IMG/VR virus record: IMGVR_UViG_3300028571_001115
Coordinates: 1-60,313 of that record
Reading direction: 5' to 3' (one strand)
DNA: 60,313 nt
DNA from: a virus
Lineage: Duplodnaviria > Caudoviricetes
Part shown: in pieces, positions 9,089 through 44,558 of the stretch
Numbering within the stretch: the stretch's first letter is position 1
How the letters are laid out: each line of letters starts with the position of its first letter
Made by a program: the position numbers and the translations under genes
The notes under the pieces: model-generated
What the model was told of the DNA's origin: nothing
Seen by the model: only the letters and a program-made list of their open reading frames with translations
The model's database searches: none

Positions 9089-9232
9089 CTCAGTCCCTCA
9101 TTTTTCGGGGACGTCTGAGCCGGATCGTGCGGGTCCATTCTCGATGTTGGTATTCGTTTGGATCGTCAACCATTCAGTGCAAAATTTATTGTCCACTGAT
9201 GGTTGACATCAGCTGAATGACTATGTATCGAA

Positions 9233-11665
9233 TTAGTCCTCGTCAGTGAAGCCCATCCGCCGGAGGATCTTTGCAGCCTCCCGCGTGTTGGTTTTAACCC
9301 CTTCAAACCGGTCCCCATGGCTGGCGCGCAGCTCGGCTGCCAGCCGGTGCGGGGAGACGATCTTGTTCTGGTCGACAATTCTTTGTACCGCTTCGGAGAT
9401 AACCGGATGCCCCTCAGTATCGAGTTTCTGGTGCAGTGCCGACCGAGCCTTGGCGTGCTCTGCCGAGTGTCCAGCAGCCTCGTGGCCGCGACCCCCAAAC
9501 AGGCCTGCGCGTGCCTCGCTGGTATCACTGCCGGTCGCCGCTGCCGTCGTTGCGCCAGCTGCCGCAGCTGTGATCTTGCCAAGACCGCGATCTGCGGCAA
9601 TCGCCTTTTTAGCCTCCTCGACATCGCCGCCCGATCGGTTGAGGTAGCCCTGCGTCTTCTTGGCTACTTTGCCGACGGTCTCATCGGCCATCGGGCCAGC
9701 CGGGATACCGGCGCGCCGACGCACCTCCTCGATGGCCTGGGCGCGACCTGGGCCGCCCTTGACATTCAGGGCGTGGTTCAGGGGCGACATGCCGTCGATG
9801 TGGCGCAGTTTGTCGCCAATGCTCGACAGGAGGTCGTCCTGCGCACTGTGGCGACCTGCGGCCTTGTCGAACAGGCTCTTGGACATGGTCTGGCTCGGGT
9901 CGCGCGTGAACTCCCCGGACGAGGTTTTCGGTTCAAATAAATCGCGCCCCATGGTCTGGCTCGGGTCGCGCGTGTAGGGTTGTGTTTGGTCTGCTTTTGC
10001 GAATGGAGGTTTAGATGACGACGTTACCAGATCCGATCCGGTTGCACCCCTTGGGACTGGCTGACCAAAGGCAGCCATTATCTCCTCAGGAGAACGCGCC
10101 TGTCCTTGAGGCGGAAGTGGCGGAGGTCCCCGAAGCCCGCCGTCAGGGCTTGATCGAGTGGCTTCTGCGCCAGTATCTGCCGTACGATTGGATGCCTCGC
10201 CAGTGGCAACACGAGCACGATCTCCTGGAGCATCGCCGTTTCGAGGAGTTTGTGCAAAGCCTTGACCCCCCGACTGATATTGCGAGCCGCCGCCGGGCGT
10301 ACGAGTTTCGTCACGGACAGAAAGCGCCGTTTTAGGCTGATCTGCCGCAAACGGCGGGATCTGCTTGCGCTGAATGGGCACTGGCTCGTAGGGAACGTCC
10401 TCTGCCTTGAGCTTGCGGATCGGCATGGCCGGGCGCTGCTCTGGGTCAAACCCGTCTGCACGAAGCTTGTCCTCAGCTGCGTTACGTTTGGCGTTCCTTG
10501 CCATATCCTTTGCCGATGTCGGCTGGATGGGTGCCCGCGCGGCGTTGATGAGCTTTTGTCCGCCCACGGCCATTAGCGAGCCACCAAGAAACGATGGCAG
10601 CGACTGATGTAGCGGGTCGTCAATCATGCCGGTCAAATTTTTAATGGCCTGATCGCGCGCCCGGGTGCCCGTGTCGTAGACGGCAGCATCCCACTCATCG
10701 GGCAGGGCCTTGCCTTCTAGCGCCATGCCGCCCCCAATGGCTCCGCCGGTCAGGTAGTCCTTGGTCTTGAGGGTTTGGCCTGCTGCCGTCTTTCGCACAG
10801 CGCCAATGGCAGGGATCGCAGTCCCAAGCGCGGTGAAGCCAACCATGGCTGCGGGAGCCGCCCATGGTAGCCGATCGCGAATGGGGGCCTGGGCTTGCCA
10901 TTCGTCGCCCACGCGGGTCTCTTCGTCGGCAAGTGCCTTGCGCGCAGCTTCTTTGGCTTGTGCCAGCGGCCCGCTGTTGCGGTACGTTTCGATTTGCTGA
11001 GTCAGGGTCTTGACTTGGCCACCGGCGTCTTCGCGGATTTGCTTGGCTTGCCCAGCCCTCACGCCGTTGGGCTTGTCCAGGTCCCGCAATCTCTGCTGCT
11101 GCGCATCGCGCTGCTTGATGAGGTCGTTCAGCCCCGGGTCGGTCCTATCGAGGTCCTCCAGGCTCTTGCGCATCTTTACAATTTGCGGGTTGGATGAAAC
11201 AGCATCCGACCGGCGTGTGGCTGCGCCCTGTACGCCATCGGCTGCCTCTGCCGCCGTCGTGAGGGTAGCCGAAGCCCCTGCTGCGCCAATTGCGCGTGCG
11301 CCACCAATGGCGCGCAGTATGGCTGCGGTCGGAAGCAAGCCAGCAATGGCGTTACCGGCTGAATTTGCTCCGTGCTTAGCCATGTCGCCGTATTCGCCAT
11401 TTTGATATGACGTGTACGCATCACCACCTGACTCGACGGCACGACCCAGGGACGGGATCCCCGTCAATTCAGCCCCAACGTTCCCAGCTGTCCGCGCGAA
11501 GTTGCCCGCAGTCGATTGGACAGCTGCCCACTGCTCTGGAGACAGCTCGCCGGTCATGTTGCCGCTGCCGTCGCCATAGTCCATCCCGGCAGATCCAGGG
11601 ATTGGATTGCCCATGGCGTCGTACAGCTGTTCATCGCGCACAAAGGGGGACTGGGCCGCCATCAA
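9233..11665 (-). CDS. Large Ala/Gly-rich protein, candidate internal virion/ejection protein
   Basis: 810 aa ORF downstream of portal with hydrophobic Gly/Ala segments and a coiled coil. Confidence 0.55.
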   Translation of the reverse strand: MMAAQSPFVRDEQLYDAMGNPIPGSAGMDYGDGSGNMTGELSPEQWAAVQSTAGNFARTAGNVGAELTGIPSLGRAVESGGDAYTSYQNGEYGDMAKHGANSAGNAIAGLLPTAAILRAIGGARAIGAAGASATLTTAAEAADGVQGAATRRSDAVSSNPQIVKMRKSLEDLDRTDPGLNDLIKQRDAQQQRLRDLDKPNGVRAGQAKQIREDAGGQVKTLTQQIETYRNSGPLAQAKEAARKALADEETRVGDEWQAQAPIRDRLPWAAPAAMVGFTALGTAIPAIGAVRKTAAGQTLKTKDYLTGGAIGGGMALEGKALPDEWDAAVYDTGTRARDQAIKNLTGMIDDPLHQSLPSFLGGSLMAVGGQKLINAARAPIQPTSAKDMARNAKRNAAEDKLRADGFDPEQRPAMPIRKLKAEDVPYEPVPIQRKQIPPFAADQPKTALSVRDETRTPGGGSQYQSGGQGFAQTPRNGDAPGDRARVATGEASNRTADTGAEATRSSPDGGLRGPPPLPPQGQARSPEEIMAAFGQPVPRGATGSDLVTSSSKPPFAKADQTQPYTRDPSQTMGRDLFEPKTSSGEFTRDPSQTMSKSLFDKAAGRHSAQDDLLSSIGDKLRHIDGMSPLNHALNVKGGPGRAQAIEEVRRRAGIPAGPMADETVGKVAKKTQGYLNRSGGDVEEAKKAIAADRGLGKITAAAAGATTAAATGSDTSEARAGLFGGRGHEAAGHSAEHAKARSALHQKLDTEGHPVISEAVQRIVDQNKIVSPHRLAAELRASHGDRFEGVKTNTREAAKILRRMGFTDED
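9884..9974. repeat. 25-bp direct repeat (9884-9908, 9950-9974)
   Basis: catggtctggctcgggtcgcgcgtg twice, encoding TRDPSQTM. Confidence 0.85.
10015..10335 (+). CDS. Candidate antisense-embedded small protein
   Basis: GGAGG-tttag-ATG; protein-like composition where the host frame is low complexity. Confidence 0.4.
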   Translation: MTTLPDPIRLHPLGLADQRQPLSPQENAPVLEAEVAEVPEARRQGLIEWLLRQYLPYDWMPRQWQHEHDLLEHRRFEEFVQSLDPPTDIASRRRAYEFRHGQKAPF

Positions 11666-11678
11666 ACACCTTTATCGA

Positions 11679-11948
11679 TTACTGTGGAGGCATGCCGCCA
11701 GGAGGCGGGCCACCTGGGCCTTCTATCATTGGATCCTGGGGCTGCTCATCGCCACCAAGGGCTGCCGCCAGCTCCTGGATCATCTGGGTCACCTGGGCGA
11801 GTGCCTCGGCGATAGCGGCGAGGATCTCCATGGGATCGCCGCCAGGGCCTTCAGGCATGCCGCCAGGGGCTGGACCGCCTGGGGGCATGCCTCCACCTGG
11901 AGGCATTGGTCCGCCTGGAGCGGCTGCAAACGGGCTCTGAGGAGGCAT
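11679..11948 (-). CDS. Small Gly/Pro-rich protein
   Basis: Starts 1 nt after portal stop; central helix flanked by GP repeats. Confidence 0.55.
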   Translation of the reverse strand: MPPQSPFAAAPGGPMPPGGGMPPGGPAPGGMPEGPGGDPMEILAAIAEALAQVTQMIQELAAALGGDEQPQDPMIEGPGGPPPGGMPPQ

Positions 11949-11949
11949 C

Positions 11950-14676
11950 TTACTGTCCTTGTGATGGATCGTTGCGGAGGTGGTTGAGTTTGTTGCCGCG
12001 CGGCTGCTGCGATTGCTGCTGCTTGATCTGCATGTCCTGCTGAGCCGACTGGGCCTTCATTTGCCCCTCCTGCTCCATCTGCTGACCCTCCATGGCCATC
12101 TTCTGCTGGCCCATGGCTTGTTCCTGCTCCATTGACTGTGCGTCCATGTGCATCTGCTGTTCGGACTGCACGCGCTGCATTTGCATGTCGGTCTGCATCT
12201 GCTGCTCTTGCATCTGAGCCTGACGCTGCTGGGTCTGCATCTCCAGCTCGCTCTTCTGCTGGTCGATCTGCGCCTTCATCTGCGCCTGCATATGAGCGGT
12301 CTCGGCTTTGAGCCGCGCCATCTGCTGCTCGGCCTGTAGCTTGGCCTGCTCGCGCTGCAGCTCGAACTGGTGCTTCTCCTGCTGCATCTGCATGCCCTGC
12401 TGATGCTTCTCGCGCTCGATCTGGAGCTTTTCGCGTTCGATCTGGATCTCGTTCTGGCCCTTGCCGTCTTTGCCCTCCTCGGCTGGAACCGGTAGCCCAG
12501 CCACCTGAGCGAGCGCAGGAGCCATCTGGGCGACAGCCTCCGCGATCTGCTCTGGCGGCGTGTTGCCAGACATCTGACCGCTCTGTGGGTCCATATAACC
12601 AGCAGGCGCGCCAAGGCCACGGGCGTGGGTCGCCCAGGCGTAGGCCATATGTTGGCCGATAATCGCAATCGCTGCCGGGCCGACTTGCTTCTGGACCTCG
12701 GGATTTCCCCCATACTGCGGGTTAGACATAAATGCCCACAGCACCTGAAGGTGCGCGACATGGTTCTGCTCCGGCGTGACCATCACTGGCTTGCCCAGCA
12801 TGATCGCCTGGACCTCGCCGATCGGGTCGTAGCTGATTGGTTTGGGGTCTGCTGGCAGCAGCTCGTCGATGTCGGGTACGCGCATCGCCTGCAGCATCCG
12901 CCGGGCAGCGATCTTGATCGGCACCACGCCGGTCTCGACCGCCATCTGGAACACGCCCTGCGCCTGCGCCATGCGCTGCTGCGTCGAAAAGATGTTTGGG
13001 TCCGACACCGGAATAACCGACACGCCGGGCGCGAAGTCGTCGACGTAGACCGTGCGCTGCTGGCCCGACACCTCGTAGGGGTAGCCGCCCTCCGGCACGT
13101 ACTTTTGGCACAGCTCGTAGCGCAGGCGCAGCTCGCGCCCGAGCGACGCGTGAGCCATCCGGTGGATAGTCGACATCACCTTCCCACCCTGCTCGATCAT
13201 CTGCTGGGTTGTGCCGACCGGCGCGTTTTTGGGGCTCTCGTCGCCGGTCATCAACTCAGTGGTCGCCGTAAACCGCTGCGCGGCTCCCTCAAGGTGGGCG
13301 ACCATCTGCATCAGGACCGGAGAGGGCTCCTTGACCGGCAGCGGGAAGAAGGCGTTTTTGAGGTCCTCGGTGGTCGCGTCGACCGGGATCCACTGGCCCG
13401 GCGTCGAGATAAGCCGCTGCCCCTTGATGTTGGCGTTTTTGCTGATGAAGCCGCCCGAGAGCGACGCGGACGCCGCGCTGTCGAGGAGGACGCGGATCGC
13501 GCCGGTCGCTGCCGTCTGAAGTCCGCCGATGCAGTGAAACAGGCCGAGGCCATAGAAGCCCGGCCCGGGGATGTAATCATATTTTTCGATGTAGACCTTG
13601 CGGTTGCACATCGGGTCGTCTTCGTCCCAGGCGCGATAGATCGCCAACACCTTGCGGCTGGCGCGCTCGATCGACACGACGTAACTGCGTTCCAAGCCGG
13701 TCGGCTCGCCGTTCTCGTCGACGTGGTCGTCGCCCTCCAGGTCGATGTCGATGCAGGTCTCAAAGATCTCGTAGCGGTTCGACTTGTCGTCGCCATCGGG
13801 TGCGGCGTCGCTCATCTCGTCGTTCGCCGTCATGATCTCGTCGCGCGTCTCGTCGGTCGGCAGATCGATGTCAGCCTTGCGATAGTGCTTGACAATCTGC
13901 AGGCGGGTCAGCTCGTTTTTCGACTTGAACATGCGGTGCGTGAAGCGCTGCGCAGTCTTGAGGCTGGTGGCCTCGGCAGGCACGATCAGATCATTGGCCG
14001 ACACGTAGATGCCAACGTTGCGCTGCAGGATCGGGTCGCGGTAGGTCTTGCGGAAGCTGTTGCCGTGGAACGGGACATGCCAGAGCAGACGCGAGGTCTC
14101 CTGGATGTAGGCCTCGTCCTCGATCGTCATCTCGTAGTTCATGTACTCGGCGACGCGCTCGGCCCGGGCGTTCTTGTCCTCCGTCTGCGCCCCCATCACC
14201 TTGCCCTTGCATGGGCCTTCAGGCGGGAACAGCTCGCCCATGGCACGCGCCCAGAACTGGGTGACAGCCTCGATCAGCAGGGGGTGGACGGCATTGGACG
14301 CGCCAGGGAAGGGGCCGTCGTCGATGTCGCTTTCGATTAACCCCATCATCTCAAGGCCGCGCTCAAATCGCTCACGCCACGGACGCCGCTCCTCGATGTC
14401 GTCCTCGACCATCATGGCGATGTCCTGGCCGAGTTTGTCGAGGTGGTCCTCGTCGAGCACAAGGGCGAGGTTATCGCCGTGGGTTTCGGGGGTGTCCATC
14501 AGGCTCGGCGCATTGAAGCCAGCCTCGTCGACGTTGCCGTCGGCGTCCATCTCAAACGTCGAGTGCAGTGGGTTCTCGCCCTCGCCCAGGTCGACCATGA
14601 TGTCGTTGTCAGGCATCGGCATGCCGAGATCGGCTGCCGTATAGGATTGCTGACGTGTTTGGCCGAGGCGCGGCAT
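11950..14676 (-). CDS. Portal protein (P22-like, with Q/M-rich C-terminal barrel)
   Basis: PFPGAS-AVHPLL-EAVTQF, RAERVAEYMNY, PGPGFYGLGL, LPVKEPS, PVGTT, PVSDPN. Confidence 0.9.
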   Translation of the reverse strand: MPRLGQTRQQSYTAADLGMPMPDNDIMVDLGEGENPLHSTFEMDADGNVDEAGFNAPSLMDTPETHGDNLALVLDEDHLDKLGQDIAMMVEDDIEERRPWRERFERGLEMMGLIESDIDDGPFPGASNAVHPLLIEAVTQFWARAMGELFPPEGPCKGKVMGAQTEDKNARAERVAEYMNYEMTIEDEAYIQETSRLLWHVPFHGNSFRKTYRDPILQRNVGIYVSANDLIVPAEATSLKTAQRFTHRMFKSKNELTRLQIVKHYRKADIDLPTDETRDEIMTANDEMSDAAPDGDDKSNRYEIFETCIDIDLEGDDHVDENGEPTGLERSYVVSIERASRKVLAIYRAWDEDDPMCNRKVYIEKYDYIPGPGFYGLGLFHCIGGLQTAATGAIRVLLDSAASASLSGGFISKNANIKGQRLISTPGQWIPVDATTEDLKNAFFPLPVKEPSPVLMQMVAHLEGAAQRFTATTELMTGDESPKNAPVGTTQQMIEQGGKVMSTIHRMAHASLGRELRLRYELCQKYVPEGGYPYEVSGQQRTVYVDDFAPGVSVIPVSDPNIFSTQQRMAQAQGVFQMAVETGVVPIKIAARRMLQAMRVPDIDELLPADPKPISYDPIGEVQAIMLGKPVMVTPEQNHVAHLQVLWAFMSNPQYGGNPEVQKQVGPAAIAIIGQHMAYAWATHARGLGAPAGYMDPQSGQMSGNTPPEQIAEAVAQMAPALAQVAGLPVPAEEGKDGKGQNEIQIEREKLQIEREKHQQGMQMQQEKHQFELQREQAKLQAEQQMARLKAETAHMQAQMKAQIDQQKSELEMQTQQRQAQMQEQQMQTDMQMQRVQSEQQMHMDAQSMEQEQAMGQQKMAMEGQQMEQEGQMKAQSAQQDMQIKQQQSQQPRGNKLNHLRNDPSQGQ

Positions 14677-14783
14677 TGCTGTCCCTCAAACTGGGTTTGG
14701 AAGCAGCAGCAGCAACGAGTTGTCAGTCCGGGAGCCGCCTTTCGGCGGACAAGGTCAATGGATGGTGGTATTCGTTTTGGGCG

Positions 14784-14942
14784 TCAACCCCGGCGCAGGA
14801 ACCACTCGTGCGCGTTCTTGGTCAAGATCGCGTCCTCCAGGGCGTGGTGCGGGCTCGGGTTGAGGATGTGGTCGACACGCACGTCGCCAACCAGCTGCTT
14901 CAGGTCCATAACCATCATTGGCCACCCTTTCGGCAGGTCCAT
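14784..14942 (-). pseudogene. C-terminal fragment of a DEDDh 3'-5' exonuclease (Rv2179c-like)
   Basis: Manual translation MDLPKGWPMMVMDLKQL...HHALEDA; SD AGGAG; N-terminal catalytic half absent. Confidence 0.5.
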
Positions 14943-15066
14943 CGTGATCTTCTCCTTTTTTTGATGGGGTCAGGCCAGCCCCAGACACACGGTCGCCCAA
15001 GTCCACACAGCAAGCACGTCCTGGGGCATGTCTTGGCCCCGTGCATGATCAGGCGGTTGCGGCATC

Positions 15067-15258
15067 TCACTTTTCGATTTCCATAATTCGGTCAGCTATC
15101 GTGCCGAGCTGCAGGTGGACGACGCCGTTCGGAGCCAGCTCCAAGACGTTGATGACGACGACGCCGTCACCTCGATCAAAGCAGCCACACTGATCACGCA
15201 ACGCGTCAGCGAGAATTGCCTCCAGCTGTCTCTTGCGTGTGATGTCCGGCCTCTTCAT
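15067..15258 (-). CDS. Hypothetical protein
   Basis: Short ORF in tightly packed operon. Confidence 0.45.
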   Translation of the reverse strand: MKRPDITRKRQLEAILADALRDQCGCFDRGDGVVVINVLELAPNGVVHLQLGTIADRIMEIEK

Positions 15259-15409
15259 AGGCGCACCCACTTGCGCTGCTGCGCGTACAGGGCGATGGGC
15301 GAGGCCCGGCTCATCATCGGGTGCGGACGGATCCGCAGGCTCATACGCAGGACCTCAAGGGTCGCCCGTGCCATCGGCGTCAGCCCTGTGGGTGGCTTCC
15401 AGGTGCCTG

Positions 15410-15583
15410 TCACTTTTGCACTACCTCCTCACCATTCGTCACGTCAATCAACATGGCGGTGCATTTGTCCCTCAGCCGATCCAAATCCACCCGCAGAGCA
15501 ATTGGCAAACCGCTCTTGTTGGTCGCCTCAGTAAGCGCGACGGCGACGGCCTCGACGACAGCATTGATGTTAATTTTCAACAT
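15410..15583 (-). CDS. Hypothetical protein
   Basis: AGGAG SD before MLKININ. Confidence 0.5.
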   Translation of the reverse strand: MLKININAVVEAVAVALTEATNKSGLPIALRVDLDRLRDKCTAMLIDVTNGEEVVQK

Positions 15584-15599
15584 ATTGTAAATCTCCTTT

Positions 15600-15897
15600 T
15601 TAGCCCAATGCCTCCTTGACCCGGTCATGGCGATCTTTTGGCAGGTAACAGATCAGGGTTTTGATCAGGAAGGCGGCGGCGCTTTCGGCCATCTTGTCCC
15701 CAAGCTCCAGCTTGATGTCGAGCAGGAACCGCGCCATCGCCTCGTCGAGCACGCGGCATCGACACCAGCTTGTTGCCAGCCGCCATGGTCTCGATGCCGG
15801 TCAACATGGCGTGGACGAGATGCGTTGCGGCCTCTTCGGCTCCACGGACCTCGTCCACCGACATCTTGCGCGGCTCGGGGATGGCAGGCTGGCTCAT
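15600..15897 (-). pseudogene. Hypothetical protein with apparent +1 frameshift near 15755
   Basis: Removing one C joins ...KLVSM to RVLDEAMARFLLDIKLELG...KEALG* with better codon usage. Confidence 0.5.
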
Positions 15898-15952
15898 TTA
15901 TCGTCCCATCAAAATAAATAGCGCGGCCAGGATCGGCACATAGATCAGCAGG

Positions 15953-16288
15953 TCAAGCACTGGTGTCGCCCTCGCGGTAGTGTTCGGTAGGCTGATCGGG
16001 GATCTGGTTGATCAGGGGTGGCCAGCGGCGCGAGCGGTTCAGCGTCTGCTTGTTGACCAACGCCTGGGCGACCGCCAGCGGGGTGTGACCGGCGCGCAGT
16101 GCGCCGTCGATGCCGAGCGTGATGATGTCGACCCACTGGCCGAGCGCGGCATCTGGCGTGTGCGCCTGCCGCACCTCGTCGCTTTCGCGCTCGATGTGGC
16201 GCAGCAGGCCCTCGGTGCGGTCGCCCTCGCCGAACGTTCTCTTGGACCACGCCCAGTGGTCATGGATGAAGGTGACGAGGTTGATCAC
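15953..16288 (-). CDS. DUF550 / dATP-dGTP pyrophosphohydrolase-like protein
   Basis: WSKRTFG...GLLRHIERE-DEV...WVDIITLGIDGA-RAG...R-WP. Confidence 0.75.
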   Translation of the reverse strand: MINLVTFIHDHWAWSKRTFGEGDRTEGLLRHIERESDEVRQAHTPDAALGQWVDIITLGIDGALRAGHTPLAVAQALVNKQTLNRSRRWPPLINQIPDQPTEHYREGDTSA

Positions 16289-16925: not shown

Positions 16926-16960
16926 GTGTCGGCCTCCTGGTGATCAATGACGGAATGCGC

Positions 16961-17500: not shown

Positions 17501-17554
17501 TGTTCCCTCTGAGTTGATCAATTGCGGCGACCGTGAGGTTATTCGCTCAAAACG

Positions 17555-17878
17555 TCAACTCTTGGCTGACTTTGGTCGTGGAAAACGCACCCTCAGTTGT
17601 TTCTGCCGCATGTAGACTTGATCAATTTGCGCCCGCAACAGCTTGATGATGGGGCCGGTCCCACCGAGCGATACCATGGCTGCCGCACAGGCAAGGCGAG
17701 CGGCCAGCTTAGCCTCGGCGATGGCCTTGGCCTCGGTCGGGTGGACACGGCCAGATCTGATGAGGGCGTCACAGACGTCCTCCAGCTCGTACAGCAGCGA
17801 GTTGACGACCGTCGTTGGCGTCACCACGCGCAGGAGAGAGCGTAGCCTGTCTACCTGGGGCTGTGTTTTATTCGTCAT
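17555..17878 (-). CDS. Hypothetical protein
   Basis: ORF with SD. Confidence 0.5.
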   Translation of the reverse strand: MTNKTQPQVDRLRSLLRVVTPTTVVNSLLYELEDVCDALIRSGRVHPTEAKAIAEAKLAARLACAAAMVSLGGTGPIIKLLRAQIDQVYMRQKQLRVRFPRPKSAKS

Positions 17879-17968
17879 CTGGTGCCCTCGCGAGGCCTTG
17901 CGCCAGAAGCCAGAGGAGGGTGTGGGCGGCTGGCGCGCCTACACCGATGAGGATAAGGAGGCCTGTGA

Positions 17969-18283: not shown

Positions 18284-18310
18284 GATCTTTTCCCCTTGAT
18301 CTTATGTGAT

Positions 18311-18356
18311 GTCAGCTCATAGCTGACTATCTGACGTGTGTCAACCATTAGTTGAC
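18311..18356 (-). promoter_or_regulatory. Sigma70 promoter TTGACA-17-TATGAG covered by two 17-bp operators
   Basis: Operators at 18340-18356 (over -35) and 18311-18327 (over -10). Confidence 0.75.
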
Positions 18357-24319: not shown

Positions 24320-24361
24320 ATACACGCTGATCAATCATGCTGATATTCGAAGGAGACTGCA

Positions 24362-24571
24362 ATGCCGAAAGCGACCAGGCCTCGCGTTCTCTATCTGGAC
24401 CAATACGGCAACAAGTTTTTCGCCCGCACCGTCAAGGAGCTTCACCAGCAGATCGGCGGCAAGATCTCCAAAATGTATGTCGACAAGACAGACGGCACCA
24501 CCAAGCACGTCGGCTACGTCATCGGCCAACGTTGGTTGACAGCCTACGCCCCAATCGAACGCCCAGCCTAA
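24362..24571 (+). CDS. Small early hypothetical protein
   Basis: AAGGAG SD; first gene after promoter. Confidence 0.7.
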   Translation: MPKATRPRVLYLDQYGNKFFARTVKELHQQIGGKISKMYVDKTDGTTKHVGYVIGQRWLTAYAPIERPA

Positions 24572-29488: not shown

Positions 29489-29691
29489 CACCCACGGATG
29501 ATGGTATTCGATTTGGCCGTCAACAGCTCGTCCAGCCCTCGCTCCAGCTTGACCACCCGCTTCAACAGCGCACTCATATGCAGCTTATTCTCGTCCTCGA
29601 TAGACGCTGCGACTAAAGCCTGCTTGCTCATAAGGCCGCATTGGCAGCGCTCGGTGGCCAAAGAGAATCTGTGGATGTGTTGGCTCATCAC
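29488..29691 (-). CDS. Hypothetical protein
   Basis: Coupled overlaps. Confidence 0.45.
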   Translation of the reverse strand: MMSQHIHRFSLATERCQCGLMSKQALVAASIEDENKLHMSALLKRVVKLERGLDELLTAKSNTIIRG

Positions 29692-33878: not shown

Positions 33879-34405
33879 GACTTACTCCTCTTCTTGCGCC
33901 CCACCATCTGATGGTGCACGGCCTCGCTTTGCGTTAGCTGGGCAGGAAGGGGTGGGCTCACTGCTGCACCTGAATAATCGGCAAGGCGGCTATAGCGGCC
34001 TAAGCCCTCGCCTTTGCCACGCAGCTGGAAGTGTCCCACGTCTTCCCAGAACTCGGTGTTGGGATGCTTGACCACGTAGGCGAGGCGCGGGCCAAAGTAG
34101 ACGGCGCAGGCCTGGGAATGCTTGCACTCGACAACCACCGTGTACGCGCTCGTAAATGCCTGCCCTGCGATGCCGCCATGCCCGCACGCGGTGTTACTCC
34201 AACCCTGCTGGAACACGGTCACGTTGACCTCGTAGAACTCGGGGCGGCGCTTGGTGATGTTGTCTTGGTCACGCACCTTGCGGGCGTTGAGGGATGCGGC
34301 TGTTTCGTCAACCCAGGTGTGGGTCACGTGATCGAACTCAGGCAGCGCCACGCAGCAGGCGTGATGCAGGGCGTAGGCCAAAGTGCTGACTGGGTCGCCG
34401 CTCAT
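33875..34405 (-). CDS. Hypothetical protein
   Basis: GAGGAG SD; FQQGWSNTACG-GG--GQAFTSAYT. Confidence 0.6.
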   Translation of the reverse strand: MSGDPVSTLAYALHHACCVALPEFDHVTHTWVDETAASLNARKVRDQDNITKRRPEFYEVNVTVFQQGWSNTACGHGGIAGQAFTSAYTVVVECKHSQACAVYFGPRLAYVVKHPNTEFWEDVGHFQLRGKGEGLGRYSRLADYSGAAVSPPLPAQLTQSEAVHHQMVGRKKRSKS

Positions 34406-34569
34406 GTATTCTCCTCGATCTTAGATGCGCGCTGGATCGCCACGCGGGCTGTCTTGATGCTGATGCCGAAGCGCTCGCTGATCGTGGAGGTACCCAGGCC
34501 GGAGCGGTAAAGCTTCAGCACCTTCAGGTCTCGCTCGCGGCACGCCCTTTCTTTCTCGTCTTGCGTCAC
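34402..34569 (-). CDS. Small HTH protein (Mor/sigma region-4-like); absent from ORF track
   Basis: Manual translation RDLKVLKLYRSGLGTSTISERFGISIKTARVAI; AGGAG SD. Confidence 0.55.
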   Translation of the reverse strand: MTQDEKERACRERDLKVLKLYRSGLGTSTISERFGISIKTARVAIQRASKIEENT

Positions 34570-36187: not shown

Positions 36188-36258
36188 GCGTCCCTCATCT
36201 GGTCTCTCGCACACCCTTGCTGATTTGCATGCTATTGTCAACTAGCGGTGGACACATT

Positions 36259-37512
36259 TTATCGGCAAGCGTACACGCCCGTCACATAGGCCAGAGTGGC
36301 ATGTGCAATCTGCCGCTCGTCGGTCAGCCGGATCTGCTCTAGGTCGATCTGGGCCAGGGCCTCAACGGCATCCAGGTAGGCGCGGGCGTCACGCTTGCCT
36401 GCCTTGTAGGCTGCCTCGGTTGCGGTCAGCACCTGGGCAGCGATCGCCCGGCGCTTCCCCAGCAGGGCAACCTGACCGGTCCCAAGCTGGATGGTTGTCC
36501 ATGCAATAGATGCTTGACCGGCAACCTCGTCCTCGCTCGCGCTGGAGCGGTATGTCGCAGCAGACGCTGCCGCCCGGCGGCTCTCCAGATCGGCCTGCGG
36601 CTCGGCACCCCATGGCAGTGGCACCCGAGCCGTCACCTTGCCATAAGCCTCCTCAGCCTCGTACGTTCTGGCATATTGTACGCTATGCTTGACGCCCACC
36701 TGAAGTGCAACCTCCGGCAGCCTGGGCCTGGAGCGCTGCGCCAGCTGGATCGCTGCCGTATCTTTAGCCAGCCGTGCCTGCCTCAGCTGCGGTGCATGGG
36801 CCAAGACGGCAGCCCTGCACTCCTCCAGGCTGGCACAGGCAGGGGGCACTGGCTGGCTGATGACCTTACGGGCAGCGCTTACAGCTCCACCCCACAAAGC
36901 CAAGCGGCGATGCTCGGCCAAGGCCGCCCGCTGCTGCGTGTCGCCCTCTGCCAGCAGCCAGCGAGACAGCCGGTCCCGCACATCCAGCAGGTCGACCTCC
37001 GGCACGTCCTTGGCCTTCACCCGCTTGCTGACATCTGCCATGACCCGCTTCAGCTGGCGCTGAGTCTCTCCTGTAACCTTGAGCCGGTCATTTGTTGACT
37101 GAGCCTCGATCGCAATGGCGCGGGTTTCACGTGAAATTGATCCGCAGACATCATCCAGCGCAGCTGATCGTTGTGCAATCGTTGCGTCGGCAACCCTAAG
37201 TTCGTCGATCAGCAACTGGTCCTTGATGATGGGCTGCGTCAACCTGACCTCGGCACTCCATGGCCCTGGTGCACGGTCACGGATGGAAGGATCAGGCACC
37301 CCATTGATGGTGTCGCGTGTCCAGGCGGGTCCGATCTCGCCGGTCGCCTCCACGGTTGGCATCCAGTTCGCGATCACCCGGCGGCGTTGCGCGACCGCCT
37401 GAGCGAGGTCAGCCTTGGCTGCCATCACCCGGGGGTGATCGGAAACCTCGGGAGCCCAGCAGGGGGTTACTGTAATGCTATAACATATCATAGCGAGCAG
37501 CAGGCGTTTCAT
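36259..37512 (-). CDS. TolC-family outer membrane channel
   Basis: Signal peptide; HPRVMAAKA...WMPTV...LTQPI, repeated in second half (RLPEV...RVPL), YKAGKR---YLDA. Confidence 0.8.
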   Translation of the reverse strand: MKRLLLAMICYSITVTPCWAPEVSDHPRVMAAKADLAQAVAQRRRVIANWMPTVEATGEIGPAWTRDTINGVPDPSIRDRAPGPWSAEVRLTQPIIKDQLLIDELRVADATIAQRSAALDDVCGSISRETRAIAIEAQSTNDRLKVTGETQRQLKRVMADVSKRVKAKDVPEVDLLDVRDRLSRWLLAEGDTQQRAALAEHRRLALWGGAVSAARKVISQPVPPACASLEECRAAVLAHAPQLRQARLAKDTAAIQLAQRSRPRLPEVALQVGVKHSVQYARTYEAEEAYGKVTARVPLPWGAEPQADLESRRAAASAATYRSSASEDEVAGQASIAWTTIQLGTGQVALLGKRRAIAAQVLTATEAAYKAGKRDARAYLDAVEALAQIDLEQIRLTDERQIAHATLAYVTGVYACR

Positions 37513-37519
37513 GGATCCC

Positions 37520-39154
37520 TCACCTTATTGCCCGGCGAACCGAGCTTGTTACGATTGACGACAGCCATCCCGCCGCTGTCTGCGGTTGGCCGATGATCGT
37601 CACCTCGACCTCAGTGCCGAGCGCGATGGGCTCGGATGGCGTCAGCACGACGCGGAACGCCCCGTCGTCATACCGGTCAGATGATACCGTGCGGACCTGG
37701 GCGCGTATGGCGCGCCCGAAACGCACGAAGCTGGTCTTGATGCGCACCTCGGCCTGGGTGTCAGCCGCAACTGATGCACGGTCGACAGGATCCAGCTTGG
37801 CCTCGATGATGGGGTCGCTATCTGGCACCACGGTCAGCAGTGCGTCGCCGATGGCAACCGGTGTCCCAGGTGGGCCTGCCTCGATCTGCTGCACGCGCCC
37901 ATTCCTCGGGGCCGCAATCACGGTCCCGGTCAGTACGCGGTCAACCTCTGCTAGCCGCTCCTGCAGCTTCAGGATAGTGGATCTGCGGGCGTAGCTGCGC
38001 TCCAGCCATTCGCGCTCCTCGGTCGACTGGTAGATCAAGGCTTCTGTTAGGTCTGATTGAGGGCGCAGGCCGCGCTTTACGAGGTCTTCGGTCGCGGTGA
38101 CGCGTGAAGACACAAGTTGCTGCGCCTTGGTGCGTGCTGATGTCGAGGCCTGGAGTGTAGTCTCCTCCAGTCGCGCCTGGGCGATGATACTTTCCCGCTG
38201 TTTTGTATAATCAGCCCCGTCCAGTGTCAGCAGAGTATCGCCGCGCGAGACGTGGTCCCCCTCCCGCACCAGGAGCGTGGACACGCGCGACGTTACGATC
38301 GACTTGATGGCGGCAGCGTGGCCGTCAGGGGACACCACGCCGGTCATGACGGTCGTCCCCGGCACCGGCACCGCCAGGGGCAGCACAACCAGCGCGCCGG
38401 TCGTGACGCAGCAGGCGGCGAGGCGGTTGCCATAGCGCGTGACGTCATCGGACGCAGGCACCGGCCCGGCCTTGAGCGTGTTGGCCGCCAGGATGAGCCG
38501 AAAGCTGTGTATTGCCGCCTTCGCAAGCTGAAGGTTGCGGAAAACAGCGAAAACCCGGCTACAGATGCTGGCCACCAGGAATGCAGCCGACAACAGCACA
38601 CCTGGCGACAGGATGCCCCAGATCGCCAGAAGCGCGGACAGCCCCATCGCCAGGACGGTAGCCCCGGCCACGAGCCCCTGAGAGGCGATTGACTGGCCGA
38701 GCTGTTGCGCGGCCCAGATGGCAACAACCAGCAGGGCGATGAGCAGCAGGAACGACCAGTGCGCGGCAACGAGGCCAGCGATCAATATCGGCGTCATGCA
38801 CAGACAAAGGAGGTCCCACGGCACGTTGGCCCGCACCGCAGTGTCGATGACGCGCAGAGCCTCCTGCTTGCTGTTGGGTGCTACGATGCTGCGCGCGACG
38901 GCCCAGCAGGCAGCGAGGTACTGGGTGGCACTATGGGCCAGGGCGACATTGACGCCCATCAGCAGGCACGCCAGGACGCCCAGCACGGCCACGGTCTCGA
39001 TGCTGCGGCTGGGGATGGCACGGTCGGCCAGGATCAGCGCGTAGACACTCGGCACGGCTGAGAGCACCAAAGCGCAGGCGGCAGCGAGTGCTGCAAACCA
39101 GAGTCGGGTCTTGAGATAATGATCCACCACGACGACAACCCACCCCAGTTTCAT
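37520..39154 (-). CDS. Fusion of PrtD-like ABC transmembrane domain and HlyD-family adaptor; no ATPase domain
   Basis: VPSVYALILADRAIPSRSIETV plus several TM helices; then GVVSP...LLVREGDHV-RGD-L, coiled coil, IAAPRNG-V, LLTVVP, EAKLDP-D. Confidence 0.75.
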   Translation of the reverse strand: MKLGWVVVVVDHYLKTRLWFAALAAACALVLSAVPSVYALILADRAIPSRSIETVAVLGVLACLLMGVNVALAHSATQYLAACWAVARSIVAPNSKQEALRVIDTAVRANVPWDLLCLCMTPILIAGLVAAHWSFLLLIALLVVAIWAAQQLGQSIASQGLVAGATVLAMGLSALLAIWGILSPGVLLSAAFLVASICSRVFAVFRNLQLAKAAIHSFRLILAANTLKAGPVPASDDVTRYGNRLAACCVTTGALVVLPLAVPVPGTTVMTGVVSPDGHAAAIKSIVTSRVSTLLVREGDHVSRGDTLLTLDGADYTKQRESIIAQARLEETTLQASTSARTKAQQLVSSRVTATEDLVKRGLRPQSDLTEALIYQSTEEREWLERSYARRSTILKLQERLAEVDRVLTGTVIAAPRNGRVQQIEAGPPGTPVAIGDALLTVVPDSDPIIEAKLDPVDRASVAADTQAEVRIKTSFVRFGRAIRAQVRTVSSDRYDDGAFRVVLTPSEPIALGTEVEVTIIGQPQTAAGWLSSIVTSSVRRAIR

Positions 39155-39255
39155 GAGGCAGGCTGATCAGCCCGCGTTTTCCCTGGTCTCTCGGTTGTGG
39201 TATTCGCGGGTGGCGTCAAGTCGCCATCAAATCCCTTTTCAGTCTGGCGCTGATG

Positions 39256-40289: not shown

Positions 40290-41435
40290 TTAGAACTTCA
40301 CGATCGCACCGACCTTCATGACGTCAACCTTTTCGTCGGCATCCATGTGCTGCCAACCGGCATAGATGTCGAGCGCTGCCGCATCAAACGACTGCACGGC
40401 ACCGAGGCCGTAGAGCATCAATTCAGCTCCGCTACCCGAGTAAAGGCCATACTCGCCCATGAGGGTGGTTTTGCCATAGCCCGTGAAATTGCGCTCGATG
40501 CCGCCCGTGACGTGATAGCCGTCCAACGTCGCTTTCCCGACGGTGGTGTCATCAAACAGCGCAGCGAGGCTCACGTTGCCCTTGCGGCCATACGCGCCGG
40601 TCACGAACAGGCCGGTGGTGGTTTCCATAACCGAAACCGAGCCGCCGAAGAAACGTGGAGCGGCGCGCCGAGTTGGGTTGACGCAGTTCGTGGCAGGAGG
40701 GACTGGGGTGCAGGCCCCGAAGTAGTCGAGGTTAGCCTCTTCACGGTAACCGACCCCTGCGGCAATCTTGAAGGTGAGTAGTTCGCCAGCGTAGCGTGCC
40801 GAGATGTCCTTCTGATCTCCACCATCAGCCCAGGCAGCCGAGAGCGTGACACCCATCAGCGCAGGCGTGTCATAGCGCACGACGTCGCGGCGTGAGCCGT
40901 CAAAACCAAGGTCGAACTCGATCGGCAGGCCCGACAGGCTGAACGACTTGGAGACGCTGGCCGTGTTGGCGACGCTGATCTCGACGATACCGTCGGTTGC
41001 CTGCGAGGTGCGGCCCAGGCTCAGGCGACCGGCGGTCGCGCTGTCAAGGTACACGAAGCCGTGGCGGATACTCGTCTGCGCGTCGGCCAGGGTATCGATG
41101 CCGACTTCCAGGACGTAGCCAGCTTTGAGGTCTGGGCTGATCCGGCCCTCGCCGATGAAGCGCACGCGGCTCTGCTCCAGGCCGTTACCAGCGACGCCCT
41201 TCTCGGTGCCGTCAGGCGTGTCGATAATGAGCAGTTGCTGGTTCACTTGACCCGAGATGGTCAGGGTCACTTTGCGATTACCCTTCTTGGCGGCAGCGGC
41301 TTCAAGTTCGGCGATACGTTCTTCAATGTCGGCGCAGCAGGCTTTGCCGCCAAGGTCGGCGGCGAAGGCTGCAATGGATGATACGAACAGGCAACTCAGC
41401 GCCAGGAGCGCTGTGGCCAGGATCTTTGATTTCAT
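40290..41435 (-). CDS. Outer membrane porin (Hyphomicrobiaceae-type)
   Basis: Signal peptide, ADLGG-ACCADIEERIAELEA--AKKGNRKV-L-ISGQVN, VRYDTP, C-terminal Phe. Confidence 0.88.
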   Translation of the reverse strand: MKSKILATALLALSCLFVSSIAAFAADLGGKACCADIEERIAELEAAAAKKGNRKVTLTISGQVNQQLLIIDTPDGTEKGVAGNGLEQSRVRFIGEGRISPDLKAGYVLEVGIDTLADAQTSIRHGFVYLDSATAGRLSLGRTSQATDGIVEISVANTASVSKSFSLSGLPIEFDLGFDGSRRDVVRYDTPALMGVTLSAAWADGGDQKDISARYAGELLTFKIAAGVGYREEANLDYFGACTPVPPATNCVNPTRRAAPRFFGGSVSVMETTTGLFVTGAYGRKGNVSLAALFDDTTVGKATLDGYHVTGGIERNFTGYGKTTLMGEYGLYSGSGAELMLYGLGAVQSFDAAALDIYAGWQHMDADEKVDVMKVGAIVKF

Positions 41436-41572
41436 GGTTGGAGGACTCCTGTTGCGGTCAGCACGATGATGTCGCGTAGACCCGTTCGATGTTGGCGTCA
41501 ACTCTCGGCTGACTAGAAAGTTTGGAGCGAGGCAGGATTGCCTCACCCCATTCGTGATTTCGTGTCGGGGCG

Positions 41573-42273
41573 TTAGTTACTTGGGGGTACTGGTGGGGGC
41601 TTTGAAAGGAACGACGGCATCCCCGTTGCTTTCGGCACCGGCTGGGGCACCGCGTCGGGTGCCGGAGGCGGTGCGGATGATGTGGTGGTGACGGAGGGTG
41701 AGGCAGTAATTGCAGATACAGGGACGGAAGATCCTGGCCCCTTGATCACCTGGGCAAGGAAGGCCTGCAAGCTGGCGGCGCGACCTTCCAGCTGGGAGGC
41801 GATAGCGCGGTTCTGCTCGGCTACTGTCAGGCATTCGGCGGCCCTTGCGTTGAGCCACGGTACGGACCCCCCGGGTCTGAATAGGTTGGTGTAGCCCCAC
41901 CCAATGGCAGGAAGGGCAGTGCCGCCGACAATGCCCCGCTGGACGAGGAGGGCGGTGTCGACGTTGTTGAAGGTTTTGGTGAAGAAGGTGAAGAACTCTT
42001 GAGCGGAGGTAAGCTCGGCTGCGGCCATGGGACGGTGGCTCCTGCATTGATGATCATCTGCTCGTAGGCGGTGCAGTCCAGTTCGGCCCTACTGCGCCGT
42101 TTGACTGCGTCGTCACGCGCCTTGGCGGCGGCCTCGTATCCCTCCCTTGCTGCGGCAGTGTCGGCCTTTGGCTGGAACAGCGGGCCGGTGATGTAGCGCA
42201 CGAAGATCAGCGCAAAAACCACGATCAGGGCGCACTCGATCAGCTTGGTCCAGACCTCGGCGGTAATGTTCAT
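41573..42273 (-). CDS. Membrane-anchored hypothetical protein(s): two overlapping ORFs, possibly one frameshifted gene
   Basis: MNITAEV... N-terminal TM; adding one C at ~42030 joins it to ORF 41573-42028. Confidence 0.45.
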
Positions 42274-42328
42274 GCGATCCTCGCGAATATCTGCTAGACG
42301 TGATGATGGTATTCGATGGAGGTGGCTA

Positions 42329-43675
42329 GTGTCAGTTGAGCAACACAAAGCTGAAGATGACGATCGCAATAAGCAGTCAACTGGACGCAATCTGCTGGGG
42401 CGGGCCGGACAAGGTGCGCTATTGGCGCTGAGCCGGGCACAAAACCTCGCACAGGAGCTGGCCCAGTCTGTGGCGGTGATCGCTCAGCCGGTGCAAGCTG
42501 CAGTGCGTGCGGTTCAGATGGTGCCAACCAGCGTCCTAAAAGCGGCAGCGCGTCATCTGCGGGTGCTGCAGCAGGCGGCATCAGCAACGGAGGCTGGGGC
42601 GCGGGTGGCGGGTGTTGCGATGAACGCGGCCATGGCAACCTCGCCGCTGATGGAAGCATCGATCCTGGCCGCACTCGACCTCAACAGCGAGGGTGCCGTC
42701 AAGGAGACTGCCAAGAAGCTGACAAACGAACAGGCTGACTACGCCGCTAAGGCCATCGCGTTCGCCCAGGAGACAGCAACCCAGACCCACGACACCGGCA
42801 AGGCGTTATCCAGCCTGACGGTCGGATACGACCTCGCTCAGCAAGCAGACAATTTCGGCCGCACTGATGCGCATGCTGAACAAATGGCGCCACTCATCCT
42901 CTATGCCAAGATTGCGCCACCGGTTATTATCGGAGTTGACCTCGGCGACACGCGCGAGAACACCGGCATCCACATCATGGTCACGGTCCACGACGAGTAT
43001 GTTGGTGACGTCACCAAAATGCTCAGCCTATCGGCACAGAACTACGAGCTGGTCAAGGGGCTCGACATCCCGTTCTCGTACACCGACAGCTTCGGCCACA
43101 CCGTGTCGACCACGATCCGCGTGCCGATCCTCGACGTTAACGAGGTGCCCGAGACGCCGGTCATCATCTCGACGTTCGATGGGCAGCAGCTGGTGATCAC
43201 CGCGACCGCAGCAGACCCCGACGGCGAGATCCTGCCCTCGCAGACATGGACCTACACTGTGCAGCAGCTGGCGGCAGGAGCACCGAGCTTCACGGCGACG
43301 TTCACTGATGCTGGTGGGTTGATGTCGAGCGCGCTGATCGACCCGCCAGAGCTGGCAAAACAAGCGGCATTGGATTCGCCGGTTGCCCCGACCATGCTGG
43401 GGTATTCGCTGGCAAGTTTGCCGGAAAACCAGGGCGGTGTGTTGATGGTCACGGCCTACGACGCAGTGGATGGGGTGATCGTACGGGGCTATGCGCTCTC
43501 GGCCCAAGACCACGAGACCACCCCCCAAATTTTGCAGCACGTCGAGATCATGAACTCCGCCGGGCTCAGCACCAGCAGTGACGTGTCGATCACCATCACC
43601 GACGTGTCGATCACCATCACCGACGTCTTCGACATCAACTGGAACGAGGTAGTCGATTCGCCGCCGATTATTTAG
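42329..43675 (+). CDS. Cadherin-like repeat protein
   Basis: GGAGG SD and GTG at 42329; NYE...YTDSFG...ILDVNEVP and LPEN...DHE...SITITDV motifs. Confidence 0.65.
   Translation: MSVEQHKAEDDDRNKQSTGRNLLGRAGQGALLALSRAQNLAQELAQSVAVIAQPVQAAVRAVQMVPTSVLKAAARHLRVLQQAASATEAGARVAGVAMNAAMATSPLMEASILAALDLNSEGAVKETAKKLTNEQADYAAKAIAFAQETATQTHDTGKALSSLTVGYDLAQQADNFGRTDAHAEQMAPLILYAKIAPPVIIGVDLGDTRENTGIHIMVTVHDEYVGDVTKMLSLSAQNYELVKGLDIPFSYTDSFGHTVSTTIRVPILDVNEVPETPVIISTFDGQQLVITATAADPDGEILPSQTWTYTVQQLAAGAPSFTATFTDAGGLMSSALIDPPELAKQAALDSPVAPTMLGYSLASLPENQGGVLMVTAYDAVDGVIVRGYALSAQDHETTPQILQHVEIMNSAGLSTSSDVSITITDVSITITDVFDINWNEVVDSPPII
43580..43626. repeat. 21-bp in-frame tandem duplication
   Basis: gacgtgtcgatcaccatcacc x2 (DVSITIT). 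Confidence 0.9.
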
Positions 43676-43700
43676 ACAGGTAGCCCGAAGGCCACTGGCG

Positions 43701-44030
43701 TTACTCCACGAAGTTGATGATGGCCCCGGCAGGGACGCCGATCAGCACGGTCTCACCGACCGGGATGGATTTGTGGTTCGTAGTTGCCAGCAGGGGCACC
43801 GAGAACAGCGGCTTAGGTCGCACTGCCACGTAGGCAACCGCTGCGCCTTTGTTCTCCAGCTCGACGAAGTGGGTCTTAGCCTCCAGCTCGACGTTGACGC
43901 CACCAGGGGCGGGGGTCGCCGTCTTGATAGGCAGCCCGGCCTCGTCGGTGACAAGGACGCCGTGCAGGATGGGCAGCTCGGTGCCGATCCTCCCACGTGC
44001 TACGTGGGGGTATTCGCGGATCACAATCAT
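43701..44030 (-). CDS. Beta-rich hypothetical (possible virion protein)
   Basis: Composition; operon with 44032-44436. Confidence 0.55.
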   Translation of the reverse strand: MIVIREYPHVARGRIGTELPILHGVLVTDEAGLPIKTATPAPGGVNVELEAKTHFVELENKGAAVAYVAVRPKPLFSVPLLATTNHKSIPVGETVLIGVPAGAIINFVE

Positions 44031-44031
44031 G

Positions 44032-44436
44032 TCAGCTCCGGATCTTAGGGAGCACGAGGAGGAATCCGACTGAACAACCGGTGCCGGTGGCTAACCCGGT
44101 TGGCGTGACGCGGAAACGGGCGTCTGATGGCACAACGCCTGGGGTCGCCAGTGTGGCTCGACTCACGGTCGAGACTGGGGCGGCATTGAGGTAGGTGATC
44201 GCGTTTGTCGTGTCGGTCAGCGTGACCGTGCCAGCCGTCGCCGTGGCATCGGCGTCTGGGATGATCCAGGTCTCCAGGAGGACGGTCCCTTTGGGGAGCA
44301 CGAACTCCCTGACGGTCGTCTCGTTGTGGAGTTTAACCGTAAATAGGGATGGCTGGGGCTGGAGGTCGAAACCGCTCTCGCTGGTGCCTCCCGTGGCCAC
44401 GCCATTGACATGGTTAGTTGCTCTGCGCAAATACAT
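44032..44436 (-). CDS. Beta-rich hypothetical (possible capsid-associated protein)
   Basis: FVLPKGTVL...ATAGT; preceded by late-type motif. Confidence 0.55.
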   Translation of the reverse strand: MYLRRATNHVNGVATGGTSESGFDLQPQPSLFTVKLHNETTVREFVLPKGTVLLETWIIPDADATATAGTVTLTDTTNAITYLNAAPVSTVSRATLATPGVVPSDARFRVTPTGLATGTGCSVGFLLVLPKIRS

Positions 44437-44558
44437 TCTGCTCTCCGATTATCATGTTTTTATGGAGGTCGTGAGCAGCAGCATCAGCGAGGGAGAATGC
44501 GGGCCATCAGCCTGCAGGTTGTCGATGATGATGTTCGTTTAGGGTTGCAACAAAAAAG

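Follow-up and report, generated by a model that had tools for sequence, protein, structure and literature searches.

Which protein reads the promoter-like element that recurs along IMG/VR virus record IMGVR_UViG_3300028571_001115? The record, 60,313 bp long and rated 100% complete, was analyzed as a whole and is called the window here. It belongs to a temperate phage from lake water, with nearly all of its genes on the minus strand, and all 18 runs holding the DNA of positions 9000-18999 are DNA from lake or freshwater metagenomes. An initial annotation had listed nine minus-strand copies of the element and had proposed that a GcrA encoded by the phage, perhaps acting with a phage methyltransferase, was repurposed as an activator of late genes. 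GcrA, the best-studied of the bacterial factors that read DNA methylation and serve as sigma70 cofactors, is known solely in the role of a cell-cycle regulator of the host. The analysis reported here establishes the motif as a real, conserved promoter signature. From sequence comparison and structural modeling, we lean toward the reading that at least seven sigma70-type promoters of this phage would need a GcrA-type cofactor and would be read by the phage's own divergent GcrA.

All nine listed positions hold the minus-strand sequence that had been given for them. The shared consensus proved wider than earlier stated, TTGACG-nCCAAAn-CGAATACCA-n-CATC, with a 17-nt spacer to a weak CATCnn and CGAATA inside the spacer, just as the initial annotation had described. 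Scores from a weight matrix built on the listed sites were circular for those sites, so mismatches were counted instead against the extended motif, TTGACG-N7-CGAATACCA-N-CATC, in which 19 positions are specified; its core, TTGACG-N7-CGAATACCA, comprises 15 specified bases. Exact copies of the core occur four times (9148, 14766, 29502, and 39198), all on the minus strand. Core matches with at most three mismatches number 11 against a shuffle mean of 1.18, and none of 100 shuffles reached 11. At no more than four mismatches out of 19, the minus strand carries seven sites and the plus strand one, compared with a mean of 0.1 per strand in twenty Markov-1 simulations. Identified by the first motif base, these seven supported sites have no mismatch (29523, 14787, and 9169), two (39219), three (42328), or four (24362 and 17558). 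A search of IMG/VR with the 15-base pattern gave single chance-level matches only among at least 117 stretches, and one of 117 also had CATC.

The three perfect sites, like all supported ones, lie on the minus strand. The first (9143..9169; TTGACG-N7-CGAATACCA-A-CATC) precedes the head operon, whose first gene (8819-9088) has its ATG 82 nt after motif base 1; the relative G002 carries TTGTCA-N7-CGAATA at the homologous position. The second (14761..14787) is found upstream of the portal gene (11950-14676, minus strand, 908 amino acids [aa]), with the ATG 112 nt after motif base 1. The third (29497..29523) sits within the 3′ end of a 67-aa gene (29488-29691), and its predicted start coincides with the ATG at 29488 of an LPD23-domain gene (28502-29491), which the initial annotation had taken to be leaderless. 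The CATCCG hexamer of this site ends 7 nt before that ATG, and because the ATG overlaps the upstream stop codon (TGATG), the LPD23 gene would be either leaderless or translationally coupled. At the other supported sites, start codons with a purine run (Shine-Dalgarno-like) follow 56-115 nt after motif base 1. The site at 39193..39219 (two mismatches, core exact) stands upstream of genes for HlyD (37520-39154), a TolC-like protein (36259-37512), and a methyltransferase (35690-36241). That at 42302..42328 (three mismatches), upstream of a 148-aa gene (41827-42273), combines a degenerate -35, TAGCCA, with an exact CGAATACCA-T-CATC; here the consensus scan gives the alternative reading CTGACA-18-TACCAT. 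Two sites have four mismatches: 17532..17558 (TTGACG-N7-CGAATAACC), upstream of a 179-aa gene (16961-17500) whose homologues in the relatives G001, G002, and G003 have a CGAACA or CGAATA box in front of them, and 24336..24362 (TTGCAG-N7-CGAATATCA), upstream of gene 23101-24261/24321 (phrog_3170).

The remaining two sites of the original list did not hold up equally well. The copy at 44524..44550 (minus strand; TTGCAA-N7-CGAACATCA-T-CATC), upstream of a 134-aa gene (44032-44436), is a borderline member with five mismatches; at this level, the minus strand has two sites and the plus strand five, so by count it lies at noise level. Its support is its position, as the first site past the end of the early/replication block (44.9 to 55.2 kb), inside which a scan found no supported minus-strand motif site. 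The copy at 41480..41501 (minus strand) was rejected: it has eight mismatches, a level common to 182 minus-strand positions, and shares with the motif only TTGACG and CGAAC. It is probably, judging from the sequence, the ordinary promoter of a porin moron (40290-41435). The porin gene is followed by a strong terminator (40210-40189) and then by a consensus-like sigma70 promoter, TTGACA-17-TATGTT (40159-40131, minus strand), and by this organization it looks like a self-contained moron. Two copies were absent from the earlier list. One is a weak minus-strand copy (2869..2890; TTGTCA-N7-CGAATTGGA, six mismatches) inside gene 2657-3304. The other, on the plus strand at 48130-48156 (TCGACG-N7-CGAAGACCA-A-CATC, two mismatches), lies antisense within the helicase gene and could be a chance occurrence or an antisense promoter.

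The -10 element at the sites is poor (yAnnnn, usually CATCnn), and because of this a lenient sigma70 consensus scan called only one of the seven supported sites. The architecture was then compared with that of Caulobacter GcrA promoters. Caulobacter GcrA prefers YGAKTCK, with TGATTCG (reverse complement CGAATCA) as the best site, and in directly regulated promoters its sites are narrowly centered near -20 or lie downstream of the start (PMC4647560). Wu et al. (2023) located upstream GcrA boxes in the -35/-10 spacer at -20 ± 1, and the non-template strand of the cryo-EM scaffold reads TTGACA-N6-CGAATC-N5-TATAAT (PMC9976885). Taking CATCnn as the -10, GAATA falls at -21 to -17 within a 17-bp spacer; by geometry and predicted starts, this is the place of an upstream GcrA box. 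The window promoters thus share with PcsM in the GcrA transcription complex TAC-U (PDB 7YE1) a sigma70 -35/-10 pair, the 17-bp spacer, and a non-palindromic, monomer-sized box on the non-template strand centered at about -20, five of whose six bases (CGAAT) are identical. They differ from PcsM in that the box is CGAATA(CC) rather than CGAATC(R), the C of GANTC being replaced by A at all seven supported sites. The changed base is the C of GANTC, and therefore CcrM cannot methylate the phage box. A second difference is that the window layout, TTGACG-N7-CGAATA-N4-CATCnn, brings the box 1 bp nearer to the -10, and the targets are phage genes.

The proposed reader of CGAATA is a divergent GcrA-family protein of 170 aa (54325..54837, minus strand), encoded by the second gene of the cro operon. 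The first gene of this early operon encodes a cro-like protein (54879..55217, minus strand; weak P22_Cro and YdaS matches), and divergent from it, at the right end of the window, lies the gene of a CI-type repressor (55418..56089, plus strand; HTH_3 plus Peptidase_S24). The 170-aa protein scored 48.8 bits against Pfam PF07750 (cut-off, 26.9) and 48.4 bits in a six-frame search, and it stayed below the cut-off of the NCBIfam cell-cycle GcrA equivalog NF050816 (34.2 versus 280 bits). Its AF2 model has a predicted local distance difference test (pLDDT) score of 93-96 over residues 11-50 and shows an N-terminal three-helix helix-turn-helix (HTH). Foldseek aligned this DNA-binding domain with 5yiv_A at a template modeling (TM) score of 0.89 and a root mean square deviation of 0.8 Å over 44 columns (43% identity), the best match overall being 7ye1_G. 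With a 0.8-Å superposition on the Caulobacter domain, the recognition-helix alignment is therefore reliable.

At the C terminus, the CCCH zinc ligands C111, C125, C136, and H139 align with Caulobacter C118, C133, C143, and H146, their spacing being X13/X10/X2 compared with X14/X9/X2. When the sigma-interacting domain was modeled on Caulobacter sigma70 residues 128-487, the score was 0.70, compared with 0.11 for the best of three controls; of the solved complexes, 58 of 80 attained this 0.70 mark, as did 2 of 110 mismatched pairs. The runs agreed in at least 91% of contacts with a partner pLDDT of at least 70, and the modeled interface on sigma70 residues 128-149 and 402-417 is the published groove. 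This model shows likeness rather than binding, because a like complex has already been solved and the sigma factor is a Caulobacter stand-in. In overall plan, the phage protein resembles the reader at PcsM: an HTH at the N terminus is joined by a linker to a CCCH zinc-finger domain at the C terminus, which was modeled on the same sigma70 domain 2 groove.

The residues facing the DNA carry the argument further. In the crystal structure of the Caulobacter domain, the first two bases of CGAATCA, C and G, are read by R42; R33 donates two hydrogen bonds to the G opposite the sixth box base and stacks on the T opposite the seventh; and two methyl pockets are formed, one by R33, N34, and I37 and the other by N34 and G38 (PMC5887438). 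Among R33, N34, I37, G38, H41, and R42, the phage GcrA keeps only the equivalent of R42 (R46). The others are replaced (R33 by T, at T37; N34 by G; I37 by S; G38 by A; H41 by D), and by this alignment both methyl-reading pockets have been lost. The phage box keeps CGAAT and alters exactly the last two positions, those read by the lost R33. The fit of the retained arginine with the retained CG, and of the lost arginine with the two changed positions, is the strongest single argument that the phage protein, rather than host GcrA, would be the reader. Its recognition helix, TTGMISAKVDRLGI, is unique among 150 aligned homologues. Among 1.84 billion representatives, one homologue of the phage GcrA exceeds 50% identity, and a word-indexed search gave two matches. 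No relative of the phage GcrA was found in IMG/VR with GcrA alignments A3 and A4, nor did a search of GenBank phages with the protein at E ≤ 1e-3 return a match.

Word usage in the window points in the same direction as the box. GANTC occurs 46 times versus 263 expected, and the canonical box CGAATCR, counted with its reverse complement, once versus 22.7 expected, whereas CGAATAC with its reverse complement occurs 14 times versus 3.5 expected. Among the 5-mers of the window, depletion is strongest for GAATC and enrichment is strongest for GAATA. Several 6-base palindromes are scarce as well: CCGCGG, CTCGAG, GAGCTC, and GCCGGC are absent, and GGCGCC, CGGCCG, and GGGCCC each occur once, where 14-52 copies are expected. 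The avoidance of palindromes and of GANTC looks like restriction-site avoidance. The sole canonical, top-ranked GcrA box, CGAATCG (43654..43660, minus strand), is intergenic, upstream of gene 43028-43540, with TACCTC 3 nt later; it may mark a promoter left under the control of host GcrA. Just 3 of the 46 GANTC sites are intergenic. Within the cI-cro intergenic region, a GANTC site (GAGTC, 55320-55324) abuts a TATATT hexamer. The phage itself encodes an N6-adenine methyltransferase of the Dam family (PF05869; 35690..36241, minus strand), for which the initial annotation had suggested a part in activation. No support was found for such a role: the gene lies downstream of the 39198 promoter, and the enzyme would therefore not be needed for the promoters to fire for the first time.

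Conservation of the box was examined with a portal alignment, by which relatives were collected from IMG/VR and from genome and metagenome contigs; the 170 nt upstream of the portal gene were read in each. The window portal as a single query had no match in IMG/VR, and relatives were reached through the alignment. The resulting portal tree has 25 rows. Clade A, which contains the window (support 100/99, nine rows), has CGAATA upstream of the portal in 7/9, CAGATA in one, and no box in one. In a subclade of the sister clade B (support 99/95, six rows), 5/6 have CGAATC and one has AGAATG. Mapped on the tree, the box labels require 5 changes versus a shuffled mean of 9.1, with 0/200 shuffles as low. 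Beyond the portal, G001-G004 carry CGAATA or CGAACA, with TTGnnn 6-7 bases upstream, before their homologues of the head operon, of the 16961 gene, and of the terminase gene, one promoter of G003 reading TTGCGA-N6-CGAATA-N5-CATGGG. In G001, a better -10 (TATATC) occupies the place of the window's CATCnn; the register is therefore fixed, with CGAATA at about -22 to -17. In the clade-A genomes, CGAATA favors the coding strand, by 18:7 in the window, by 12:3 in G002, and by 6:0 in G003. A side observation concerns G001, the closest relative, in which a TnpB/IS605 OrfB-type gene with a Cas12f1-like TNB domain (L204, 590-1720) takes the position of the window's small early genes.

Clade-B relatives resemble the window in having a GcrA-type box at a fixed place, but theirs is the exact host box, presumably read by the host factor. 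Their layout is CGAATC-N3-yAnnnT, and one G010 promoter reads TTGACA-N6-CGAATC. Contigs G010:C2 and G009:C2 (L226-L229 and L222-L225) are rich in coding-strand copies of the canonical CGAATC(G/A) box, which precede the portal, porin, primase, and other genes; the strand bias of canonical boxes in G010:C2 is 19:8. A PF07750 search of two near-complete clade-B contigs, which carry cro and/or primase, terminase, porin, portal, and head genes, found no match in the phage contig, the matches in these assemblies sitting on other contigs. As a positive control, the same search of the window, the one complete clade-A genome, found one match. The clade-B boxes are canonical and come without a GcrA of the phage's own, and therefore these promoters are probably coupled to host GcrA. 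Two further features were seen on this side of the tree. Contig L202 of G009 is labeled as a Saccharibacteria metagenome-assembled genome but is a related phage; the same assembly has GcrA-family genes on other contigs, and the bin is probably mixed or mislabeled. In addition, sister-clade members (L126, L234, L236, L239, L202, and L203) share a recurring TTTCGAAA/TTCTCGAAAA palindrome that precedes the portal box by 15-60 nt.

Taken together, the geometry, the residue changes, and the clade-wise switch of the box favor the link to GcrA that the initial annotation had drawn, and we consider the phage GcrA moderately probable as the reader. Under this scheme, region 4 of host sigma70 would read the good -35 box, TTGACG, while the poor -10 would make RNA polymerase alone inefficient. 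The phage GcrA would be made early from the cro operon and would bind sigma70 domain 2 through its C-terminal zinc-finger domain. Its N-terminal HTH would read a non-palindromic spacer box, CGAATAC(C), located from about -22 to -16. Reading the box would assist both binding and opening of the promoter, the role that GcrA plays at PcsM in Caulobacter. With the box outside the reach of CcrM and the methyl pockets lost, the pair would act independently of the host CcrM/GcrA cell-cycle circuit and of methylation. As to its origin, a lineage that once used the methylation-reading GcrA of its host may have gone private, the box changing from CGAATC to CGAATA and a GcrA paralogue being re-specified into an orthogonal pair serving at least seven units; we hold this history as tentative, with rather more doubt than confidence. 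The name late promoters is itself doubtful. The gcrA gene is the second of the cro operon, and the targets include, besides head and portal genes, HlyD/TolC and cargo of unassigned function.

Several observations weigh against a dedicated phage reader. The initial annotation had called for a scan of related phages for co-occurrence of the motif with gcrA; the co-occurrence of box type with phage GcrA is based on one clade-A versus two clade-B genomes. The other clade-A contigs are fragments, and two of them, G002 and G004 (74% and 60% complete), show no GcrA. The close GcrA homologue P0122 comes without a genome placement. In the alignment, several residues of the sigma-interacting domain that matter in Caulobacter are replaced (W120 by H, F130 by V, and Y151 by L). 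Compared with PcsM, the distance from the box to the -10 is shorter by 1 bp, and the T usually found at -7 is missing from the -10. Moreover, gcrA is immediate-early, which leaves late timing unexplained, and the original list of nine includes two weak sites. Restriction avoidance alone may account for the loss of GANTC, CGAATA then being a decayed CGAATC box. Finally, binding by Caulobacter GcrA is only 1.4- to 1.7-fold weaker when the DNA is unmethylated (PMC4647560), so that host GcrA remains a candidate reader.

These last two points lead to the reading in which host GcrA, together with sigma70, would recognize CGAATA as a decayed or relaxed CGAATC without methylation, the phage GcrA doing something else, such as manipulating host genes in the way suggested for gp222 of phiCbK. 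Beyond the modest loss of binding to unmethylated DNA, this agrees with the position and orientation of the box, which are those of host GcrA boxes, and with the sister-clade phages, which use canonical CGAATC without a GcrA of their own; the genome-wide purge of GANTC, along with other palindromes, could incidentally have converted CGAATC to CGAATA. The G lost in CGAATA, however, is the one that takes two hydrogen bonds from R33, and at the Caulobacter mipZ promoter a mutation from a high- to a low-ranked box cut activity by nearly 80% (PMC4647560). Decay also does not predict the positions after the box (CC A), which are conserved in the window, and the changes in the phage protein fall exactly on the residues facing the changed bases. 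We regard host GcrA as an unlikely reader of these sites.

Another phage protein might instead activate through CGAATACCA, the likeness to a GcrA box being coincidental. The initial annotation had named as an alternative a Mor-like HTH protein encoded at 34402; this 55-aa protein (34402..34569, minus strand) or an unannotated early/middle protein would be the candidate. Its gene is located at the end of the early/middle region, just before late-type units, the usual place of a late activator; its weak Sigma70_r4_2 and HTH_23 matches are compatible with such a role, and many window proteins are without a family. These HTH matches are generic and below curated cut-offs, however; Pfam at E ≤ 0.05 gave no Mor match, and PHROGs gave "HTH DNA binding protein." Furthermore, neither the 55-aa protein nor six of its neighbors had a homologue at E ≤ 0.01 in any relative locus examined, and these loci include the syntenic G001 stretch, which retains CGAATA-type boxes. 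It is unlikely that five of six box bases, the orientation, and the position would all match the GcrA box by coincidence and that the canonical box would also replace CGAATA clade by clade; an activator other than GcrA seems to us improbable.

Still less credence is given to factor-independent sigma70 promoters with a lineage-specific spacer word, or to a repressor operator that would silence these units in the lysogen. The near-consensus -35 would suit the former, HlyD/TolC-type cargo genes are often expressed from prophages, and sites located in the spacer are typical of repressors. On the other hand, the -10 is poor, with six of the seven sites failing the lenient consensus scan, sigma70 alone does not account for nine conserved spacer bases, and the 9-bp word is non-palindromic, unlike the operators of dimeric CI or Cro. 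Four further candidates were rejected on comparison with consensus sequences or from the sequence itself: an ECF or sigma28-type promoter with CGAATA as the -10 (no conserved -35 lies 16-17 nt upstream), an RpoH-type promoter (which leaves CGAATA unexplained), a promoter of a phage single-subunit RNA polymerase (the 810-aa and 908-aa proteins have no polymerase family, the latter being the portal), and a dyad operator (the motif has no symmetry).

The remainder of the window is organized as follows. The replication genes encode a primase/helicase (49044-50537) and a helicase (47187-48968). To their left lie an integrase-like gene, small genes without assigned function, the porin gene, and the HlyD and TolC-like pair; further left are the genes for the Dam-family methyltransferase, the 55-aa HTH protein, a ParB-like protein, and the LPD23-domain protein. 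The left part of the window holds the genes for the large terminase (19300-21312), portal, and capsid (4728-5642), together with tail genes. An imperfect hairpin, TGTCrrC-CnATA-GCTGACA, occurs in two minus-strand copies (4697-4730 and 22800-22833), immediately 5′ of ribosome-binding sites, one after the capsid gene and the other before gene 22101-22799; the pair may be an operator or an RNA element. Gene 46467-47120 contains tandem proline/glycine-rich coding repeats at 46514-46805 (repeat families D1, D6, and D14). A transfer RNA search of the window found none, and among GenBank phages no close DNA relative of the window was found. With regard to the host, the porin, TolC, and HlyD matches are at the family level only. 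Among cultured phages, related portals are found only at a distance (31-37% identity), in phages of Roseobacter, Pelagibacter, Caulobacter, and some cyanobacteria, and a search of 401 alphaproteobacterial genomes yielded only distant portal relatives, in six genomes at no more than 46% identity.

If the pairing of box and protein holds true, it would be a natural example of the re-specification of a sigma cofactor, a new means by which a phage times its genes, and a ready-made orthogonal promoter/activator pair for Alphaproteobacteria. The correlation of one base with one arginine offers a directly testable rule for DNA reading by GcrA. From the sister clade, in which the boxes are canonical and a phage GcrA is absent, it would seem that related phages tie the expression of structural genes to a host S-phase factor.

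Literature searches pairing GcrA with phages turned up no phage promoter class linked to a GcrA of the phage's own. In the papers that these searches found (PMC3556154, PMC9437464, and the abstract of PMC13459779), phage GcrA homologues are discussed solely as host-takeover genes, and PMC9437464 describes a scan of phage genomes with the host GcrA motif that gave no positional pattern. The phiCbK-like Caulobacter phages are alike in carrying a GcrA-family gene (gp222) on the genome of an alphaproteobacterial phage; they differ in that gp222 is proposed in PMC3556154 to act only on host replication or cell-cycle genes, with no phage promoter class tied to it. The new element here is the altered box paired with a matching phage GcrA.

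A wider comparison is with the phage late-promoter activators that act with host sigma70, namely, Lpa of P1 (with an element near -22), Mor and C of Mu, and MotA/AsiA of T4. In each of these systems, as would be the case here, a phage factor directs the host sigma70 holoenzyme to phage promoters with a defective core element. The difference is that GcrA has no sequence or fold relation to these factors, and that in this phage a cofactor of sigma domain 2 would read the spacer.

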